This document shows positions 1-13,551 of a stretch of DNA of 13,551 nt, one piece after another. The first letter of the stretch is position 1. Every line of letters starts with the position of its first letter. Source of the DNA: a virus; the IMG/VR virus record IMGVR_UViG_3300012949_000081. The stretch is one strand, 5' to 3'. Below the pieces are notes generated by a model. It was not told the DNA's origin. It was given only the letters and a program-made list of their open reading frames with translations, and did no database searches. Made by a program: the position numbers and the translations under genes.

Positions 1-121
1 GTCCAGCTTTAAGGCTTTTGCTGCTAAAATCATGTATCCAATAGCCGCCGCGTTTGTCATACCGTCCATGTTTTCACTCCTTTTTTACTTTAATGTTTAC
101 TTGCATTTTATTATAATATTA
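1..121. repeat. Terminal direct repeat copy A (circularisation overlap)
   Basis: Base-for-base identical to 13431-13551. Contains the first 69 nt of the 54-aa ORF plus its RBS and the conserved box. Confidence 0.95.
87..101 (-). promoter_or_regulatory. Conserved box ACTTTAATGTTTACT (copy 1; duplicated at 13517-13531)
   Basis: 15-mer identical to 964-978 and 14/15 identical to 7559-7573. Lies between the predicted -10 (110-115) and the RBS of the 54-aa ORF. Confidence 0.6.
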
Positions 122-139
122 TTACCTGTTTAGTGTCAA
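110..139 (-). promoter_or_regulatory. Sigma-70/SigA-like promoter of the par-rep operon
   Basis: Minus strand reads TTGACA (139-134), then a 17-18 nt spacer, then TTATAAT (116-110). Sits immediately downstream of the terminator at 142-182. Confidence 0.5.
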
Positions 140-512: not shown

Positions 513-927
513 TTCTCTTTTCCCCCGTTTCAATAGCCCTTTTTAATATTTCTTGGGTTGCAATGATATAATCAAAGGCCATATCTACAAAGTTAAATAT
601 CAAGTCATACTCCAAAAACCATTTATAAGACTGTTTCCCATGCTCTTTTTCTTTTTCGTCGTCCTGGTTCTGGCTCGGTACCTGGCTGCCCCATCTTATA
701 GCTGCTCTCGGGTCTGGCTTATCTGCAAAGCCATACTCTTGTGTCCAATAGCTTAACAAGGTATCAGCCTTTTCTAACTTAATAAGAGCGTCCTCAATGG
801 CTGTACGCGTTTCAAACAATTCATGTTTTAAGGCTTTTTCCGTAACGTTTGCTGCCGTTACTTCGTTTACCCCGTTTATACCGCTTACAACGTTTATCAT
901 GCTTACTGCGTTTACCATTTTGTTCAT
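481..927 (-). CDS. Hypothetical 148-aa protein with an N-terminal x-[V/I]-[N/S] tripeptide repeat
   Basis: ORF on the coding strand with a weak RBS (GTGGGG, 7 nt before the ATG). The first ~27 codons are encoded by the 9-bp phased array at 847-918. No recognisable domain. Confidence 0.55.
   Translation of the reverse strand: MNKMVNAVSMINVVSGINGVNEVTAANVTEKALKHELFETRTAIEDALIKLEKADTLLSYWTQEYGFADKPDPRAAIRWGSQVPSQNQDDEKEKEHGKQSYKWFLEYDLIFNFVDMAFDYIIATQEILKRAIETGEKRNEETDKATSH
847..918. repeat. Eight tandem 9-bp units with G[C/T]TTA[C/T] core (plus-strand orientation)
   Basis: Units: gtttgctgc, cgttacttc, gtttacccc, gtttatacc, gcttacaac, gtttatcat, gcttactgc, gtttaccat, starting at 847, 856, 865, 874, 883, 892, 901 and 910. 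The last six are strong and the first two degenerate. Confidence 0.8.
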
Positions 928-963: not shown

Positions 964-978
964 ACTTTAATGTTTACT
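964..978 (-). promoter_or_regulatory. Conserved box ACTTTAATGTTTACT (copy 2)
   Basis: Identical 15-mer to 87-101. Lies 37 nt upstream of the ATG at 927 and downstream of the predicted -10. Flanked by GGTGA/TCACC inverted repeats. Confidence 0.6.
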
Positions 979-991
979 CACCGTTTAATGA

Positions 992-1022
992 TATATTACA
1001 CCATGATTATTATATTTGTCAA
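992..1022 (-). promoter_or_regulatory. Sigma-70-like promoter of the 148-aa/107-aa cassette
   Basis: Minus strand reads TTGACA (1022-1017), an 18-nt spacer, then TAATAT (998-993), with TG immediately upstream of the -10. Confidence 0.45.
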
Positions 1023-1032
1023 GTAGTTTTTT

Positions 1033-1059
1033 GTAAATAAAATAAACATAGTAAACATA
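1033..1059. repeat. Three tandem 9-bp units gtaaataaa / ataaacata / gtaaacata
   Basis: Same [G/A]TAAA[C/T] core and 9-bp phase as the large arrays. Sits between terminator 1068-1095 and promoter 992-1022. Confidence 0.5.
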
Positions 1060-1479: not shown

Positions 1480-3123
1480 TTATAAAGCATTTAAAAACTC
1501 GTTATAATGCTCATATAAGCCCACATAGGCGTTTAATAGGCTTGCTGTACCATCTATACGCATTTTTGCGCTCTGCGCCTTTATGGGTACAATATTGCCG
1601 TTTCTGTCGGTCTGTACGCCGGTATTGGTTAAGCACCATTTGAGAATAGGGTTGTTATTATAATTTATCTTCTTGGCCTGGAGATCCGCTCCCAACATCT
1701 GCATAGGTAAGCTTAAGGTCTTGGCTCCCTGTATGCAGCGCACCATCTTAAAGCCGTAATTCTCCATTTCTTCAACCCAATACTTGGCGCTATAACTGTC
1801 GTAATATATCCATAAAGGCGTTATGCCCTTCTCGTTTACCATCTCCAAAAACCAGGCCGTAACGTCGCCGTAATTGATTGAATTGCCGTTACAAAGTCTT
1901 ATTAAGCCCTGTTCAAGCCATTTATCGTATGGTATTTTTTCCTCTGTTACGCGCTTCTCAAAGTTATCCCGCGGCAGCCAATACATTTGATATACAAAGC
2001 GTTCCTCTGTTTCTTTGTCCATCATCAAGAGCGTTGCGCAAGTTAAGTCTGTGGTAATACTTAAATCAGCGCCGCCTATGGCATAGCAATTCTTAAACCT
2101 GGCAATGTCAAAGGTTTTCTCATTGTTTATATCATCAAAGGAAAGCCATGCGCTGCTAATGGTATCTCTTATATTGAAGTCCTTTACCAATATGCCGTTA
2201 AGGTCTTTCGGGCTGTTCTTGGCTCTCTCAACCTTGTTCATAAGGTCGTCCAGCTTCTTAATCGTGCCTAAACCCGGATTTGCTTTTTCCCAGGCCTTCG
2301 GGTCTTTCCATTCTTCCCGGTTATCCAGCTCATAGATTATGGGTAAAAATGTATCGTCCTGGAATGTACCATCAACAACGTTGCAGGCGTAAGAATACAT
2401 ATCATCAAATATGCACTCTCTGACGGTTCCGGCCGTTGTAATCATTACAAGTAAAGGCTGCCGTCTGGCGCTCTGGCTTTGTTTCATAACTTCGTAAAGG
2501 TTCCGGTCTTTTATGCTGTGCAGCTCGTCAATGATAACACAATGAGCATTTAGGCCGTCCAGGGTATCGCTGTTCTTTCCTAAAGGCTGAAATTTGCTCA
2601 TAGTCAAAGGAAAATATAAATCACTCTTGCGCTTCTTTATGTACCGGTTAATATCCGGACTTTGCTTTACCATGTTATGGGTTTCATCAAACACAATGCG
2701 CGCCTGGTCTTTCTTTGTGGCCACACTGTAAACTTCTGCGCCTGGCTCATTGTCTGCAATCATCATATAAAGAGCAATACCGGCAAGCATGGTACTTTTA
2801 CCATTCTTACGGCCTACCATGAACAACGTTTCCCGGTACTTTCTTAAGCCTGTTTCCTCATGGACAAACCCAAATAAGGCGGATATATAAGCCTTCTGGA
2901 ATAGTTCCAGCTTAACTGGCTTTCCCGCCCATTCGCCTTTAGAGTGCTTACAGAATTGTTCTATAAAGCGTATAGGCTTGGTTGCACGGCTCTCGTCGAA
3001 TATATACCCGCCCTTTGGGTTCTTTATGTCATCAACAAGCTTCTCGTACTGCTTCCTTACCCTTGTGGAAACAATACAAGAGCCGTTGCAAATTTCGTTA
3101 TAATACTGCTCAATGTAATTCAC
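1480..3123 (-). CDS. terL: Terminase large subunit
   Basis: Walker A GRKNGKST, Walker B VIIDELH, and the nuclease-domain aspartate motif GGADLSITTD. 547 aa. GTG start preceded by AAGGCGGTGA. Confidence 0.95.
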   Translation of the reverse strand: MNYIEQYYNEICNGSCIVSTRVRKQYEKLVDDIKNPKGGYIFDESRATKPIRFIEQFCKHSKGEWAGKPVKLELFQKAYISALFGFVHEETGLRKYRETLFMVGRKNGKSTMLAGIALYMMIADNEPGAEVYSVATKKDQARIVFDETHNMVKQSPDINRYIKKRKSDLYFPLTMSKFQPLGKNSDTLDGLNAHCVIIDELHSIKDRNLYEVMKQSQSARRQPLLVMITTAGTVRECIFDDMYSYACNVVDGTFQDDTFLPIIYELDNREEWKDPKAWEKANPGLGTIKKLDDLMNKVERAKNSPKDLNGILVKDFNIRDTISSAWLSFDDINNEKTFDIARFKNCYAIGGADLSITTDLTCATLLMMDKETEERFVYQMYWLPRDNFEKRVTEEKIPYDKWLEQGLIRLCNGNSINYGDVTAWFLEMVNEKGITPLWIYYDSYSAKYWVEEMENYGFKMVRCIQGAKTLSLPMQMLGADLQAKKINYNNNPILKWCLTNTGVQTDRNGNIVPIKAQSAKMRIDGTASLLNAYVGLYEHYNEFLNAL

Positions 3124-3486: not shown

Positions 3487-3516
3487 CTATTTCACCGCCT
3501 TATTACTTGCTGTTTA

Positions 3517-3528
3517 TTTAATGTTTAC
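3517..3528 (-). promoter_or_regulatory. Conserved box TTTAATGTTTAC (copy 3, 12-nt core only)
   Basis: Core identical to the other three boxes. Lies 31 nt upstream of the terS ATG. No convincing -35/-10 seen upstream. Confidence 0.45.
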
Positions 3529-7548: not shown

Positions 7549-7577
7549 ATTATAGCATACTTTAATGTTTACGTCAA
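7549..7577 (-). promoter_or_regulatory. Near-consensus promoter of the head operon with the conserved box (7559-7573) in its spacer
   Basis: Minus strand reads TTGACG (7577-7572), exactly 17 nt, then TATAAT (7554-7549). The spacer contains GTAAACATTAAAGT. A second TATAAT at 7587-7582 lies 9 nt upstream of the box, the same spacing as at 110-115 versus 87-101. Confidence 0.6.
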
Positions 7578-7624
7578 GTTTATTATATGATTATCAGAAT
7601 TACTTTGTTTATTGTTTTTACTTG

Positions 7625-7651
7625 GTAAACATAGTAATAAAAATAAACGCA
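7625..7651. repeat. Three tandem 9-bp units gtaaacata / gtaataaaa / ataaacgca
   Basis: Same core and phase as 1033-1059 (shared AAACATAGTAA). Partly overlaps the terminator U-tract. Confidence 0.4.
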
Positions 7652-7671
7652 AGGCGTCTTTATGCCCTGCG
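7634..7671 (-). terminator. Rho-independent terminator
   Basis: Minus-strand hairpin CGCAGGGC-ATAAAGAC-GCCTTGCG (7671-7648, one G-U pair), followed by TTTATTTTTATT. Confidence 0.6.
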
Positions 7672-7725
7672 TTCCTGTTTTGAATTTCACATATCTTATC
7701 TTGTGTTAAACTGGCTAATATGCCG
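7640..7725 (-). ncRNA. Candidate small RNA of about 85 nt (orphan promoter to terminator)
   Basis: An extended -10 promoter at 7732-7740 fires toward the terminator at 7634-7671. There is no RBS-preceded ORF between them. Confidence 0.3.
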
Positions 7726-10246: not shown

Positions 10247-10312
10247 TTTCTCATCTCCCTTTTTGTATCCACATGGGGTATATTTCTTTATTCTTTAAGC
10301 CCATAATATTAA

Positions 10313-10349
10313 GGCGGCGCGGCGGCGTCAAACAAGCCGCTGCCGCCGC
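10313..10349. other. GC-only imperfect hairpin in the origin region
   Basis: GGCGGCGCGGCGGC, loop gtcaaacaa, GCCGCTGCCGCCGC: about 8 bp of G/C pairing with one wobble. No adjacent U-tract on either strand, so it is not a typical terminator. Confidence 0.4.
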
Positions 10350-10380
10350 TATAAAGCTTATATAGCTTATAAAGCTTATA
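10350..10380. repeat. AT-rich segment with three 9-bp phased GCTTAT units
   Basis: GCTTAT at 10356, 10365 and 10374 (ataaagctta tatagcttat aaagcttata). The core fits the G[C/T]TTA[C/T] consensus of the 847-918 array. Possible DNA-unwinding element. Confidence 0.5.
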
Positions 10381-10447: not shown

Positions 10448-10535
10448 CGTTACCACTTTCTGCCCCATGCGTTACCACTTTCTGCCCCATGCGTTACCAC
10501 TTTCTGCCCCATGCGTTACCACTTTCTGCCCCATG
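10448..10535. repeat. Four perfect tandem 22-bp iterons (cgttaccactttctgccccatg): candidate replication origin
   Basis: Identical units at 10448, 10470, 10492 and 10514. They abut the stop codon (10537-10539) of the 459-aa gene and lie upstream of the primase-helicase gene. Confidence 0.8.
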
Positions 10536-10536
10536 C

Positions 10537-11916
10537 TTATAATCTAATGGTAACACTATAAATTTCTTGGCCGCGTTTATTTTCACAATAACCGGCAATA
10601 AATTTTTCTTGCTTCCAGTAGTCTAATATCCGTCTTATTTGTTCACGTATTTTTGCTTTTTTCTTCCTTAAAGCTCCAGGACTTGCTGCTTTAATTTCAA
10701 GCTGCTTGTATAAGGTATCATACACAACGGTTTTACTCATATTGCTGTTGCTGTTTTTCATGGAAAGGATACGGCGGTATAGATAGCCTTGAAGCGTTAT
10801 GATTTCCTCTGTCTTATTGATAGGCGTATTGAGCAATTTAATATCAAACCGGCCTATCTGGTTCTTTTTGCTGGCGTATTCATATAAAACCGGCTCTCTT
10901 AAAATATGCAAACATTCAAGAACATTACCGTTTAATGTTGCTGTAACTCTTTCACCGCTTATAAGGCTTCCGTCATATTTGAAGCTTTCAAAGCCGTAAG
11001 CTTTGGCTTCCTCGCTTGCGTCAATAATGACGCGGCTATATAAGCATTTTGTTATGCTCTCACTAATAGCTTCGGCTTGTTTTTTTTCAAGGTAAGCGTC
11101 CGGGTTTCCTGTCATTACCTGGTATATCATTTGCGGCGTTATGTACTCATTGCCCCCATCAACATATAATGTTATAATGGCGTCATGTACTTCCCTATCA
11201 TAAGGGGTAAGCTCTTTACGTCCTTTTATCTGTACGGCTCCGTTAAGTTTTTCATAGTCAATGCTGGCAATGGTTGTAATCTGTTTTTTACTTTTCCTTT
11301 GGTTTTCCATTGCTAAACTATGAAGTTCAGGGCCCATAATTTGGCCGGTAAAAGCATAGTAACTTACTTTGTCTGTTGATGTTATGAAATTATCCGGGTA
11401 CTTGGTACGGACTGAATTTTCAATAATTCTTTCTAACTCTTTAGGCTCTTGTATGCTTTGCTTAAAACTGGCTGAAAACTTTTCAAGTAAGGCCGGCAAT
11501 TCTTTTTCTAAATACCGCCTAAATCTTAAGGTTTTTTCTCTGATGAATTGGCTTGAATAGTCTTTATAGTCCGGCCATACTTTGGCTTTTTGTTCGTCGG
11601 TTGCTTTCGGATCCATGAAGGCATTAACAAACTCAATATAATAATTTATCTGTTCTTCCAGTACCTTTATGGGGTTTTCCTGGAAGGCTTGCATAAACTC
11701 TTTCCATTCAGCTATTGCTTCCTCGTTTTGACGGTCTAATGCTTCCTCTGAAGGAAAGCCATCTTTTTCAAAGTAAGCTTCACGCGCTGCCGCGACTTCT
11801 GGCGTAAACATAGGCGGCGCTTTTTTCTTATAAGCTTCAAGCTCCGCTTCCATTTCTGCCGTCCAGGGGTACCGTCTGCATATATCTTTAATCTTTTTAT
11901 TCTCCACCTGCTTCAC
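10537..11916 (-). CDS. Putative iteron-binding replication initiator (459 aa); function assigned by position only
   Basis: Long ORF with a GTG start (11916, or 11907 with better RBS spacing). The C-terminal half has a winged-helix-like character (TPYDREVHDAIITLYVDGGNEYITPQMIYQVM; LRKKKAKIREQIRRILDYWKQEKFIAGY). Iterons lie immediately 3' of the gene. Confidence 0.45.
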   Translation of the reverse strand: MKQVENKKIKDICRRYPWTAEMEAELEAYKKKAPPMFTPEVAAAREAYFEKDGFPSEEALDRQNEEAIAEWKEFMQAFQENPIKVLEEQINYYIEFVNAFMDPKATDEQKAKVWPDYKDYSSQFIREKTLRFRRYLEKELPALLEKFSASFKQSIQEPKELERIIENSVRTKYPDNFITSTDKVSYYAFTGQIMGPELHSLAMENQRKSKKQITTIASIDYEKLNGAVQIKGRKELTPYDREVHDAIITLYVDGGNEYITPQMIYQVMTGNPDAYLEKKQAEAISESITKCLYSRVIIDASEEAKAYGFESFKYDGSLISGERVTATLNGNVLECLHILREPVLYEYASKKNQIGRFDIKLLNTPINKTEEIITLQGYLYRRILSMKNSNSNMSKTVVYDTLYKQLEIKAASPGALRKKKAKIREQIRRILDYWKQEKFIAGYCENKRGQEIYSVTIRL

Positions 11917-11931
11917 CTTCCTTTCACTTTT

Positions 11932-12003
11932 GTAAACACAATAAGCAATGTAAACAAGGTAACCACAGTAAACATTGTAAACTGTGTAAACATGGTAAAC
12001 ATT
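11932..12003. repeat. Eight tandem 9-bp units with [G/A]TAA[A/G/C]C core: candidate centromere/operator array
   Basis: Units: gtaaacaca, ataagcaat, gtaaacaag, gtaaccaca, gtaaacatt, gtaaactgt, gtaaacatg, gtaaacatt, starting at 11932, 11941, 11950, 11959, 11968, 11977, 11986 and 11995. Orientation is opposite to the 847-918 array. Confidence 0.85.
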
Positions 12004-12203
12004 TATTTATCCTTACCCTTGTCATTGTCAATGCCTAAAAGGTACTCTCTCATAGCTTCCTCTGTAACATACCAGCGCGTACCAAACTTACGGGCTTTTA
12101 TGCGGCCTTCTTTGAAAAACTTTCTTATGCTCTGCGGCGTCATATCAAAGATTTTGGCTATTTCCTGCACATCGTAAAATTTGATGTCGCCTATCTGCTT
12201 CAT
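12003..12203 (-). CDS. Excisionase/AlpA-type (MerR-like) helix-turn-helix DNA-binding protein
   Basis: 66 aa. YDVQEIAKIFDMTPQSIRKFFKEGRIKARKFGTRWYV matches the excisionase-family HTH pattern. The start overlaps the RHH gene stop (TAATG). Confidence 0.75.
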   Translation of the reverse strand: MKQIGDIKFYDVQEIAKIFDMTPQSIRKFFKEGRIKARKFGTRWYVTEEAMREYLLGIDNDKGKDK

Positions 12204-12535
12204 TACTTATCCTTCCTTTCTATAATCTCTTTACCGTCCAAAAACTCGGCAATCATTTTGTTTACAACGTCCTTCAAGGTTTCTCTTTCGGTGTATGCGT
12301 AATCTTTGAGTTTTTCTAATAAATCTTCTCTTACAATGAAGGTTGCGCGCGTGTAGCCTTCCCTTAAACCTTCCTGGCTTGTCTTTTCATATTCCCGGTA
12401 TATAGTGCGCGGCCTTCCCATGTTACTTCTGGGTACCTGTGGTAACCCTTGTTCCTCTTGTTGTTCCGGCTCCGGTTGTTCAAAAAACTTGCTTACCGCT
12501 TGGTCGCCTAAACCTTCAATTTTCTTCTTACTCAT
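12203..12535 (-). CDS. Ribbon-helix-helix protein, probable ParA partner (ParG/omega-like centromere binder)
   Basis: 110 aa. Disordered acidic/basic N-terminus, then a strand-helix-helix pattern RATFIVREDLLEKLKDYAYTERETLKDVVNKMIAEFL. Immediately downstream of parA. Confidence 0.65.
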   Translation of the reverse strand: MSKKKIEGLGDQAVSKFFEQPEPEQQEEQGLPQVPRSNMGRPRTIYREYEKTSQEGLREGYTRATFIVREDLLEKLKDYAYTERETLKDVVNKMIAEFLDGKEIIERKDK

Positions 12536-12540
12536 GTTTT

Positions 12541-13293
12541 TTACTTACCTCCCTTAATAATTTCAGCTGTCAAAGCATTATAGCCCGCGGCCGTCGGTGA
12601 TACTGGCGCATAGGTTAAAATATCCGTCTGATTTGCCTGGGCTTCTCTTGTCGCCACACTTGCCCTTATAAAGGTTTGAAATACTTTTGTATTCATTCGC
12701 TTTGCTGCGGCCTTTGCCGCTTTTTCAAACTCTCTGCTTAAAAGGGTTCTGTTGTTATGCTGCGTAAACAATAAGCCTTCAATTTTTAGGCCTGGGTTAC
12801 TATGACGCCTTACGGCTTCTATGGTAGAATATAATTGGCTTAACCCTTGCAGGCTTAATACGTCTGCTGATAATGGAATAATAACGCTGTCGGCAGCTGT
12901 TAAGGCGTTTATGGTTAATATCCCTAATGACGGCGGGGTATCAATCAAAACATAATCATAGCCGTTCTTAACGGCTTCTACTTTGTTCCTTAATAGCTCC
13001 GGCCGCTTAATTTCCATATCGGCACCGCTCAAAAGAATGTTGGCCGGTATAATATGGCCGCTCTTGGTTTGCTGCAAAGCGTTTTTAATGCTTACCTTGT
13101 CGTTCAATACTTCATATACTGTGGGCTTATTTACGCTATCTGCGCCGGCAATAAAAGATAAATTGCCTTGCGGATCCAGGTCAATCATTAAAACCCTATA
13201 TTCCTTATAGGTCAATGACGCGGCCACATTATGGGCTGTTGTCGTCTTGCCTACGCCGCCCTTTTGGTTGGCTATTGCTATAACCCTGGGCAT
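12541..13293 (-). CDS. parA: ParA/Soj-family partition ATPase
   Basis: Deviant Walker A IANQKGGVGKTTT at the N-terminus, then LMIDLDPQGN, then Walker B VLIDTPPSLG. 250 aa. Confidence 0.95.
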   Translation of the reverse strand: MPRVIAIANQKGGVGKTTTAHNVAASLTYKEYRVLMIDLDPQGNLSFIAGADSVNKPTVYEVLNDKVSIKNALQQTKSGHIIPANILLSGADMEIKRPELLRNKVEAVKNGYDYVLIDTPPSLGILTINALTAADSVIIPLSADVLSLQGLSQLYSTIEAVRRHSNPGLKIEGLLFTQHNNRTLLSREFEKAAKAAAKRMNTKVFQTFIRASVATREAQANQTDILTYAPVSPTAAGYNALTAEIIKGGK

Positions 13294-13334: not shown

Positions 13335-13499
13335 TTAATAAAAGCTGTTATATGCTTCTTCCGCTTCTTCCTCGGTTCTCATGTCCATAAAATACTTCAT
13401 GTTGCTTTCCAGCTGCTTTATGGTTTCCTTGTCCAGCTTTAAGGCTTTTGCTGCTAAAATCATGTATCCAATAGCCGCCGCGTTTGTCATACCGTCCAT
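13335..13499 (-). CDS. Hypothetical 54-aa protein, first gene of the par operon (not in the ORF track)
   Basis: My translation: MDGMTNAAAIGYMILAAKALKLDKETIKQLESNMKYFMDMRTEEEAEEAYNSFY. Strong RBS (AAAGGAGTGAAAAC-ATG). Stop TAA at 13335-13337, 41 nt upstream of the parA start. Below the track length cutoff. Confidence 0.45.
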   Translation of the reverse strand: MDGMTNAAAIGYMILAAKALKLDKETIKQLESNMKYFMDMRTEEEAEEAYNSFY

Positions 13500-13551
13500 G
13501 TTTTCACTCCTTTTTTACTTTAATGTTTACTTGCATTTTATTATAATATTA
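13431..13551. repeat. Terminal direct repeat copy B (circularisation overlap)
   Basis: Identical to 1-121. The repeat boundary at 13431 falls inside the ORF 13335-13499, so it is not a natural element end. Confidence 0.95.

Follow-up and report, generated by a model that had tools for sequence, protein, structure and literature searches.

The window, by which is meant the whole 13,551-nucleotide stretch of viral DNA analysed here, begins and ends with the same sequence. Positions 1-121 and 13431-13551 are identical over 121 bp, from which a circular genome of 13,430 bp follows; relatives of the element assemble at 13-14.7 kb. All of the genes in the window lie on the minus strand and, in the direction of transcription, the genes for ParA, an RHH protein and an HTH protein are followed by an array of short repeats, the rep gene, a set of 22-bp repeats and a primase-helicase gene. 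The other genes encode a portal, a prohead protease, a capsid protein, an HNH protein, a putative TerS, TerL and a head-completion protein, the terS assignment being one of position beside terL only, with no family match. Genes for tail proteins or an integrase are absent from among the window's genes, and a megablast search of the whole window against phage and plasmid collections returned no match. Read here from its genes, the element is a capsid-forming satellite-plasmid (cf-PISP-like), for which the host hints are Eubacterium aggregans, Desulfosporosinus, Peptococcales and, in the relative L021, Bacillus ectoiniformans. The features around the junction of the par genes and rep are as follows.

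12541..13293, minus strand: ParA, 250 aa, Walker-type (Pfam AAA_31 over residues 3-171, E 2e-56)
12203..12535, minus strand: RHH protein, 110 aa, proposed from its predicted fold and from homologues beside ParA to be a centromere-binding protein and global repressor
12003..12203, minus strand: HTH_17 protein (Xis/AlpA-like), 66 aa (HTH_17, E 2e-10)
11932..12003, core GTAAACA on the plus strand (TGTTTAC on the gene strand): main array of eight contiguous 9-bp units, a candidate centromere and roadblock operator
10537..11916, minus strand: Rep-like initiator, 459 aa, with tandem winged-helix domains in its C-terminal part
10448..10536, directly 3' of the rep stop codon: four perfect 22-bp iterons, a putative origin

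An earlier, sequence-only reading of this DNA had described eight phased 9-bp units of GTAAAC type at the main array, and this description was borne out by reading of the sequence, by Tandem Repeats Finder, by a pattern scan and by comparison with shuffled sequence. On the plus strand the units run GTAAACACA, ATAAGCAAT, GTAAACAAG, GTAACCACA, GTAAACATT, GTAAACTGT, GTAAACATG and GTAAACATT. Tandem Repeats Finder reports a period of 9 and 8.2 copies over 11930-12003, and the pattern [GA]TAA[AGC]C matches at steps of exactly 9 bp from 11932 and 11941 through to 11995. The longest phased run in the window is eight, against one in 443 and two in 57 of 500 dinucleotide-preserving shuffles. This is an arrangement of uninterrupted direct repeats with a 9-nt period, of the type found in pCXC100. 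The final unit stops at 12003, which is the first plus-strand base of the HTH gene stop codon (12003-12005, TAA on the minus strand), in agreement with the 1-nt overlap that had been claimed. In the direction of transcription the array begins at the last base of this stop codon, and about 6 nt separate its end from the next gene's ribosome-binding site. The distance of 15 nt that had been given between the array and the 459-aa gene stands for the longest ORF, which starts at GTG 11916, and does not stand for the other starts. GTG 11907 is better placed after the ribosome-binding site AAGGAAGG and is likely to be the true start, and the JGI call for rep (P0125, 438 aa) would start at 11853, such that the gap is 15-78 nt according to which start is true. 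A consensus scan detected neither a promoter nor a terminator within the array and rep is therefore assumed to be read through from two promoters, P1 and P2, which are described below. An RNA-level element at the array was considered and rejected: the window contains no Rfam family and folding of the array transcript (z = -1.5) was no better than that of shuffles.

The labels that had been given to the ParA, RHH and HTH genes hold. ParA carries the Walker A motif KGGVGKT at residues 11-17, also matches CbiA and, in PHROG, matches the ParA-like partition proteins. It lacks the N-terminal HTH domain of type Ia proteins and has the size of type Ib. The RHH gene begins 6 nt after parA and encodes a protein whose N-terminal tail is basic and which has a GRP motif, the strand TRATFIV and two helices. 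In an AF2 model residues 1-60 are disordered and are followed by a strand or extended segment (62-69) and helices at 70-82 and 87-99 with pLDDT of 88-95. The top Foldseek matches of this very small domain, all with E > 1, are all RHH proteins (CopG, ORF56, ParD, Arc and AmrZ), and weak Arc-like matches were found in PHROG (E 5e-4 to 7e-3). On the model, then, this would be a small RHH-fold protein with a flexible N-terminal tail encoded 3' of parA, as is characteristic of type Ib modules. The protein matched no Pfam or NCBIfam family and gave no tblastn match to phages, and a profile of the family (35 members) searched against all PDB chain sequences recovered only 2kel (E 0.4) and a DnaA fragment (E 1.1). 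Structures have been reported for ParG, omega and the ParB of pCXC100 (PMC3074162) and, assuming that their chains are present in the PDB set, the family shows no detectable sequence similarity to any of the three. Within the strand, T62, R63, T65 and I67 do not vary among family members. The N-terminus is also conserved (M-x-K-K-...-L-G-...-P/A-L, with MSKKNFTGGLNSLLG in plasmid homologues), and we take it to resemble the ParA-stimulating N-terminal peptides of ParB proteins. A further motif, GRP(R/K)T at residues 40-42, is like the core of an AT-hook. It is invariant in the Firmicutes family and also occurs in the homologue from Tenacibaculum, is missing from those of the Flavobacterium plasmid pA5BP1 and of Lawsonia, and could contact the AT-rich minor groove between units. 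The HTH gene is translationally coupled to the RHH gene, its start codon overlapping the preceding stop codon, and is the conserved third gene of the module in the Firmicutes lineage, where it always accompanies the RHH gene. The two are fused in a 150-aa protein, P0096 (6613-7065), of L017, a temperate phage with an integrase and a holin; a search of this phage for arrays revealed no GTAAAC arrays, and it has no ParA.

The 459-aa protein matched no Pfam or NCBIfam family and a sequence search of the PDB was uninformative. Its structural model has two winged-helix-like domains, for which Foldseek returned RctB domains 2-3 (E 1e-4), RepE54 (E 2e-4) and Pi (E 2e-3), each with a probability of 1.00. 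These structural matches, together with the iterons behind the gene, justify the label of initiator proposed in the sequence-only reading, since the predicted fold is RepE/Pi/RctB-like and a tandem winged-helix fold adjacent to direct iterons is the pattern of an iteron-type Rep. All relatives have about four iteron copies, in which the GTGGTAACG core is conserved and the rest is specific to the lineage. At 10310-10380, after the iterons and ahead of the primase gene, lie a GC-rich hairpin, GGCGGCGCGGCGGCG...GCCGCTGCCGCCGC, and then 3.4 copies of the 9-bp repeat TATAAAGCT. The latter element (TATAAGCTT x3.4) is kept in nearly all relatives, and hairpin and repeat together could serve in origin unwinding or primase loading.

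Evidence that the main array is under constraint comes from comparison with related elements. Ten IMG/VR relatives of the 459-aa gene were taken for this purpose and further relatives (L011 onward) were retrieved via the RHH protein. It had been suggested that such a comparison should look for conservation of the 9-bp phase rather than of exact sequence, and this is what was seen: phase and place are kept and the sequence details turn over. Close relatives do not lose the array, which is present in all eight same-lineage relatives covering the HTH-rep junction (L001-L005 and L007-L009) as 6-9 units with identical place, 9-bp register and core. The flanking bases and the orientation of units vary, and in some of these relatives the end units are inverted. 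Units of both orientations also occur in phase inside single arrays, in relatives of the window, in distant loci and in pA5BP1. The relative L010 (60% identity) has only 6 nt at the HTH-rep junction; a phased run of 5 units separates its parA from its RHH gene, and its promoters have GTAAAC boxes. Among more distant elements, ParA-RHH-HTH modules with 9-bp GTAAAC-type arrays 3' of the HTH gene were found in L011-13, L014-16, L019, L021 and L022, the array following the HTH gene directly in L011-13, L019 and L022 and with one gene in between in L014-16 and L021. In L019, a Desulfosporosinus MAG, there are 12.9 units downstream and 6-7 units upstream of parA. Arrays are also present in L014-16, which are 9.7-kb circles without capsid genes. 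The L014 contig (19,702 bp) is a head-to-tail dimer of such a circular element and encodes a tyrosine recombinase, a primase-helicase, the ParA-RHH-HTH trio and DUF6075, with four 22-bp iterons and no capsid genes; the par module is accordingly common to satellite-plasmids and plain small plasmids. Arrays similar to that of the window adjoin every ParA and RHH pair recovered, and it is without exception next to the par genes that the largest contiguous array is found. When 96 units from 14 arrays are tallied, the consensus is (A/T)-G-T-A-A-A-C-A-T, with conservation from the G to the final T of 78, 98, 96, 96, 76, 84, 72 and 54%, such that core positions 2-4 (T, A, A) are 96-98% conserved.

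These comparisons bear on the possibility that the repeats are auxiliary origin elements for Rep or a host factor, or else neutral tandem DNA generated by slippage. The array does adjoin rep, about 1.4 kb from the iterons, and the unit GGTAACCAC is loosely like the iteron core GTGGTAAC. However, the iterons are 22 bp long and vary between lineages whereas the 9-bp core is constant, and arrays are found with non-homologous downstream genes. The array of L019, L014 and L021 is followed by a gene that is not homologous to rep, which indicates that the array belongs to the par module and not to the initiator. Rep or a host factor as the reader of the array was rejected on these grounds. Neutral slippage was likewise rejected, in that the units differ among themselves yet retain the core, which points to selection on the core and not to recent slippage. 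Taken together, an origin element or slippage product at this position would be most improbable.

The sequence-only reading had named either the RHH protein or the HTH protein as the likely binder of the array. Of these the RHH protein (12203-12535) is, on the comparative sequence evidence, most likely the reader, and the HTH protein is not. A tblastn search of complete plasmids in PLSDB found RHH homologues in Tenacibaculum finnmarkense (NZ_CP116302.1), in Flavobacterium sp. (pA5BP1, NZ_MN657160.1) and in Lawsonia, in all of which the RHH gene is directly 3' of the ParA gene and the encoded protein retains the strand TRATFIV. In the Lawsonia plasmid the gene that comes next after the RHH gene carries an integrase annotation. 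A Pfam scan of the neighbouring genes detected no HTH_17 on the plasmids of Tenacibaculum and Flavobacterium, and in both of these 9-bp phased GTAAAC/GTAATA/GTTTAC arrays precede parA and also separate it from the RHH gene. In pA5BP1, on which a literature search found nothing, the upstream array reads AGTAATACT AGTTTACTT AGTAATATA AGTAAACTA GTATTACTA AGTAAACAT and that between the genes AGTAAACAC AGTAATTAA AGTAAACAA AGATTACTA AGTAAACAT. The occurrence of such arrays with ParA and RHH genes and without an HTH gene favours the RHH protein as reader, as does the fact that the strand residues of the family are invariant and the repeat core equally constant. L010 provides a third argument, since it retains GTAAAC sites and an RHH protein 51% identical to that of the window although its HTH protein no longer gives a BLAST match. 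Finally, the occurrence of both unit orientations in phase fits reading of GT(A/T)(A/T)AC by a two-fold symmetric dimer.

The alternative, that the 66-aa HTH_17 protein polymerises on the repeats, alone or with the RHH protein, as an architectural or activator element, was initially prompted by L010 seeming to have lost both the array and HTH similarity. It was rejected once the 5-unit array of L010 had been found and the HTH-less plasmids were seen to favour the RHH protein. The HTH gene does end inside the array, is conserved with it throughout the Firmicutes lineage and is found fused to the RHH gene in P0096, and direct-repeat arrays are bound by Xis-type proteins (PMC7498355). The sites of such Xis-type or RDF proteins are spaced one helical turn apart (PMC7498355). 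The array of the window has a spacing of 9 bp and units of mixed orientation occur within such phased arrays, an arrangement ill suited to a monomeric winged helix. Moreover, similar arrays exist on Bacteroidota plasmids that have no HTH_17 gene, and L010 retains sites with an HTH sequence that is not detectably similar. Reading of the array by the HTH protein is thus quite unlikely, although a joint or alternative role for a protein that always occurs with the RHH protein in Firmicutes, and is fused to it in L017, may be envisaged.

If the RHH protein does read the 9-bp units then the distribution of related sites in the rest of the genome is of interest. The following promoters, boxes and secondary arrays were found.

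110..139, minus strand: promoter P2, TTGACA-18-TATAAT, 12/12 matches
89..100, minus strand: box GTAAACATTAAA, 9 nt downstream of the P2 -10 hexamer
993..1022, minus strand: promoter P1, TTGACA-18-TAATAT, kept in L002, L005, L007 and L009
1037..1009, minus strand: overlapping alternative to P1, TTTACA-17-TATAAT
966..977, minus strand: box GTAAACATTAAA, downstream of the P1 -10 hexamer
1033..1059: three 9-bp phased units GTAAAT, ATAAAC and GTAAAC on the plus strand, 5' of or overlapping the P1 -35 hexamer
865..918: six 9-bp phased units GTAAAC/GTAAGC/ATAAAC on the minus strand, in the 5' end of ORF 481-927 (148 aa)
7549..7577, minus strand: promoter P3 of the capsid/packaging operon, TTGACG-17-TATAAT with a TG extension, kept in L001 and L003
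7561-7572, minus strand: box GTAAACATTAAA, within the P3 spacer
7589..7630: five degenerate 9-bp phased units GTTTAC, GTAAAA, ATAAAC, GTAATT and ATAATC on the minus strand
3517..3528, minus strand: box GTAAACATTAAA upstream of terS, then ATAAAC and GTAATA at 11-bp steps

P2 is positioned upstream of a 54-aa gene and parA, across the circular junction, and the copy of its box at 13519-13530 is the same site doubled by the assembly overlap. The 12-mer GTAAACATTAAA, an extended form of the array core, occurs in exactly four copies in the unique genome as against 0.24 expected. All four are intergenic and on the gene strand, at P1, P2 and P3 and upstream of terS, and most related loci, the distant L014, L019 and L021 among them, have the box next to promoters. 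Phased units, three to five in each case, precede P1 and P3, those before P3 lying between a terminator (7674..7645) and the -35 hexamer. Strong intrinsic terminators lie on the minus strand at 7645-7674 and 1075-1099, with phased units and a promoter after each (P3 and P1, respectively), and these two terminators split the circle into two units whose control regions match, an early one for par, rep and primase and a late one for capsid and packaging. Upstream of terS no promoter was detected in the 3495-3528 region, and the copies there (GTAAAC, ATAAAC and GTAATA, minus strand) have a spacing of 11 bp and not 9. Phased units are also found within coding sequence. Those at 865-918, which are present only in the window and in L009, encode a Val-Asn-X tripeptide repeat (VNA-VSM-INV-VSG-ING-VNE), a similar in-frame array occupies the 5' end of the HTH gene in L011-13 (L011 8289-8328), and in L014 alternating GTTTAC/GTAAAC units at 9-bp steps lie inside the primase gene (2998-3030).

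The recurrence of the array core at all three strong promoters and upstream of terS suggests an omega-like protein that would combine the roles of centromere binder and global repressor, and strengthens the analogy with omega that had been drawn in the sequence-only reading. A partition-site motif at several promoters of the replicon (four copies against 0.24 expected) is the pattern associated with omega, the repression itself being predicted. The same sites could be explained if the array were solely a transcriptional operator or roadblock, through which the RHH protein sets the level of par-operon transcription that reaches rep and primase, with partition, if any, using the promoter-proximal sites. 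The array takes up all of the space from the HTH stop codon to the rep ribosome-binding site, where neither a promoter nor a terminator was detected, its core lies at the operator positions of P1, P2 and P3, and the arrays of pA5BP1 are placed both upstream of and within the par operon, all of which would be expected of an operator. Against an exclusively regulatory role, the array follows the par module but precedes non-Rep genes in L019, L014 and L021, the largest contiguous array keeps its place beside the par genes in every case, and the conserved neighbour, a ParA ATPase, needs a centromere. In addition, the two roles coexist in omega, ParG and the ParB of pCXC100. Sequence alone does not separate a regulatory-only role from that of a centromere, and on this balance we consider an operator without a centromere function to be unlikely, if still a serious alternative.

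The reading that we prefer is that the array is the main binding array, or centromere, of a type Ib-like partition module, read by the RHH protein and acting also as an operator. To this we attach a rough probability of 0.62. It is consistent with every computational test that was applied to the candidate centromere/operator of the sequence-only reading, namely conservation of position and phase, the predicted fold of the initiator and the boxes at promoters. Counting against it are the downstream position of the main array, which departs from the classic type Ib layout, the lack of detectable similarity of the RHH family to ParG, omega or the ParB of pCXC100, the Foldseek E-values above 1, and phage L017, in which RHH and HTH are fused and neither ParA nor arrays occur. 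The analysis computed the array, its conservation, the predicted protein folds and the co-occurrence of RHH gene and array; binding and its stoichiometry, stimulation of ParA, repression and the roadblock are what we infer from them. According to the model, RHH dimers would read the pseudo-symmetric hexamer GT(A/T)(A/T)AC with one dimer on each 9-bp unit, so that approximately eight dimers would cooperatively cover 72 bp. As 9 bp is less than a helical turn, neighbouring dimers would be offset by about -50 degrees and would wrap the DNA roughly once per eight units. The basic N-terminal tails of the bound RHH proteins would then recruit and stimulate ParA-ATP, leading to segregation of the 13.4-kb episome. 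The same protein would be expected to bind GTAAACATTAAA and the short phased runs at P1, P2, P3 and upstream of terS, and binding at the promoters would repress both its own operon and the capsid operon in the manner of omega. Because the array lies within the par-rep transcript and has neither promoter nor terminator of its own, the coated array would probably also throttle read-through into rep.

A more far-reaching proposal may be made tentatively, although we regard it as rather doubtful. In this, the one RHH protein would be the master switch of a Firmicutes satellite-plasmid, segregating the element by way of the 8-unit array and, by way of the GTAAACATTAAA boxes, silencing its replication genes and its capsid/packaging genes (P3 and upstream of terS), with the constantly linked HTH_17 protein as a derepressor responsive to a helper phage. 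If this were true, the partition complex and a lysogeny-type repressor would be one molecule, in a class of element that has been reported only from Vibrio. Short of this, the preferred reading of the array as centromere and operator would provide a likely centromere/operator code (GTAAACA core, 9-bp register) for a widespread family of ParA partners, recovered from Firmicutes elements, Bacteroidota plasmids and, less clearly, Lawsonia plasmids, the members of which are now labelled 'hypothetical protein'. The motif can serve for the annotation of partition sites and promoters in such elements. This reading also suggests a way in which a satellite-plasmid that encodes a capsid but no tail could couple inheritance, copy control and late-gene silencing via one protein.

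By analogy, the closest known system is that of pCXC100 from Leifsonia xyli, a type Ib system in which the RHH protein ParB binds nine uninterrupted 9-nt repeats with one dimer on each (PMC3074162); the 9-bp period of the window array is therefore not unusual. In both cases the partner of a small Walker ParA is a small protein, encoded after it, whose N-terminal tail is disordered and whose C-terminal domain is of RHH type, and the array is uninterrupted, with about nine 9-nt direct repeats in the pCXC100 centromere and eight units in the window. There is no detectable sequence similarity between the two systems and the repeat sequence differs. The pCXC100 site is upstream of parA whereas the main array of the window is downstream of the operon, its units can flip and there is an additional HTH_17 gene. 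Classic type Ib centromeres are likewise located upstream of the operon and overlap the promoter (PMC3074162). In the window the main array lies downstream of the par genes, and P1 and P2, upstream of parA, are accompanied by single boxes and 3-unit runs of the same core; in L019 and pA5BP1 parA is preceded by full arrays. A short-repeat array adjoining the operon is present in both the Firmicutes elements and the Bacteroidota plasmids, its role as a centromere being that of a candidate. As 9-bp RHH centromeres are already known from pCXC100, the window is a further, unannotated type Ib example and not a new principle, and would represent a second independent lineage for this centromere architecture.

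A similar comparison can be made with ParG and parH of TP228, for which degenerate short boxes with AT-rich spacers as the centromere, and autoregulation of the operon by the same protein, are described (PMC3130281). ParF/ParG shares with the window its type Ib character and an RHH centromere-binding protein with a flexible tail. ParG reads tetramer boxes and parH is upstream of the operon, in contrast to the 9-bp units and downstream main array of the window, and there is no sequence similarity. In functional terms it is omega of pSM19035/inc18 that is, again by analogy, the closest known system. Omega is an RHH protein with a flexible N-terminal tail that acts both as the partner of a ParA and as a global repressor, with arrays at several promoters, and its repeat units, the heptads WATCACW, occur in both orientations. 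The window differs in having 9-bp GTAAACA units in place of 7-bp heptads and no sequence similarity to omega, and here the regulated set would include a phage capsid/packaging operon.

The more unusual feature is the host element itself, a Firmicutes counterpart of the capsid-forming satellite-plasmids that have been reported from Vibrio only (PMC13230959). Like these, the element of the window is a small circular episome with parA, rep, capsid, portal, protease, HNH and terminase genes, and both are without tail genes and without an integrase. They differ in that the window and its relatives have Firmicutes-type hosts and in that a partition site was not described for the Vibrio satellite-plasmids (PMC13230959). 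In the Firmicutes elements, one RHH protein may join segregation, replication and the control of capsid genes.
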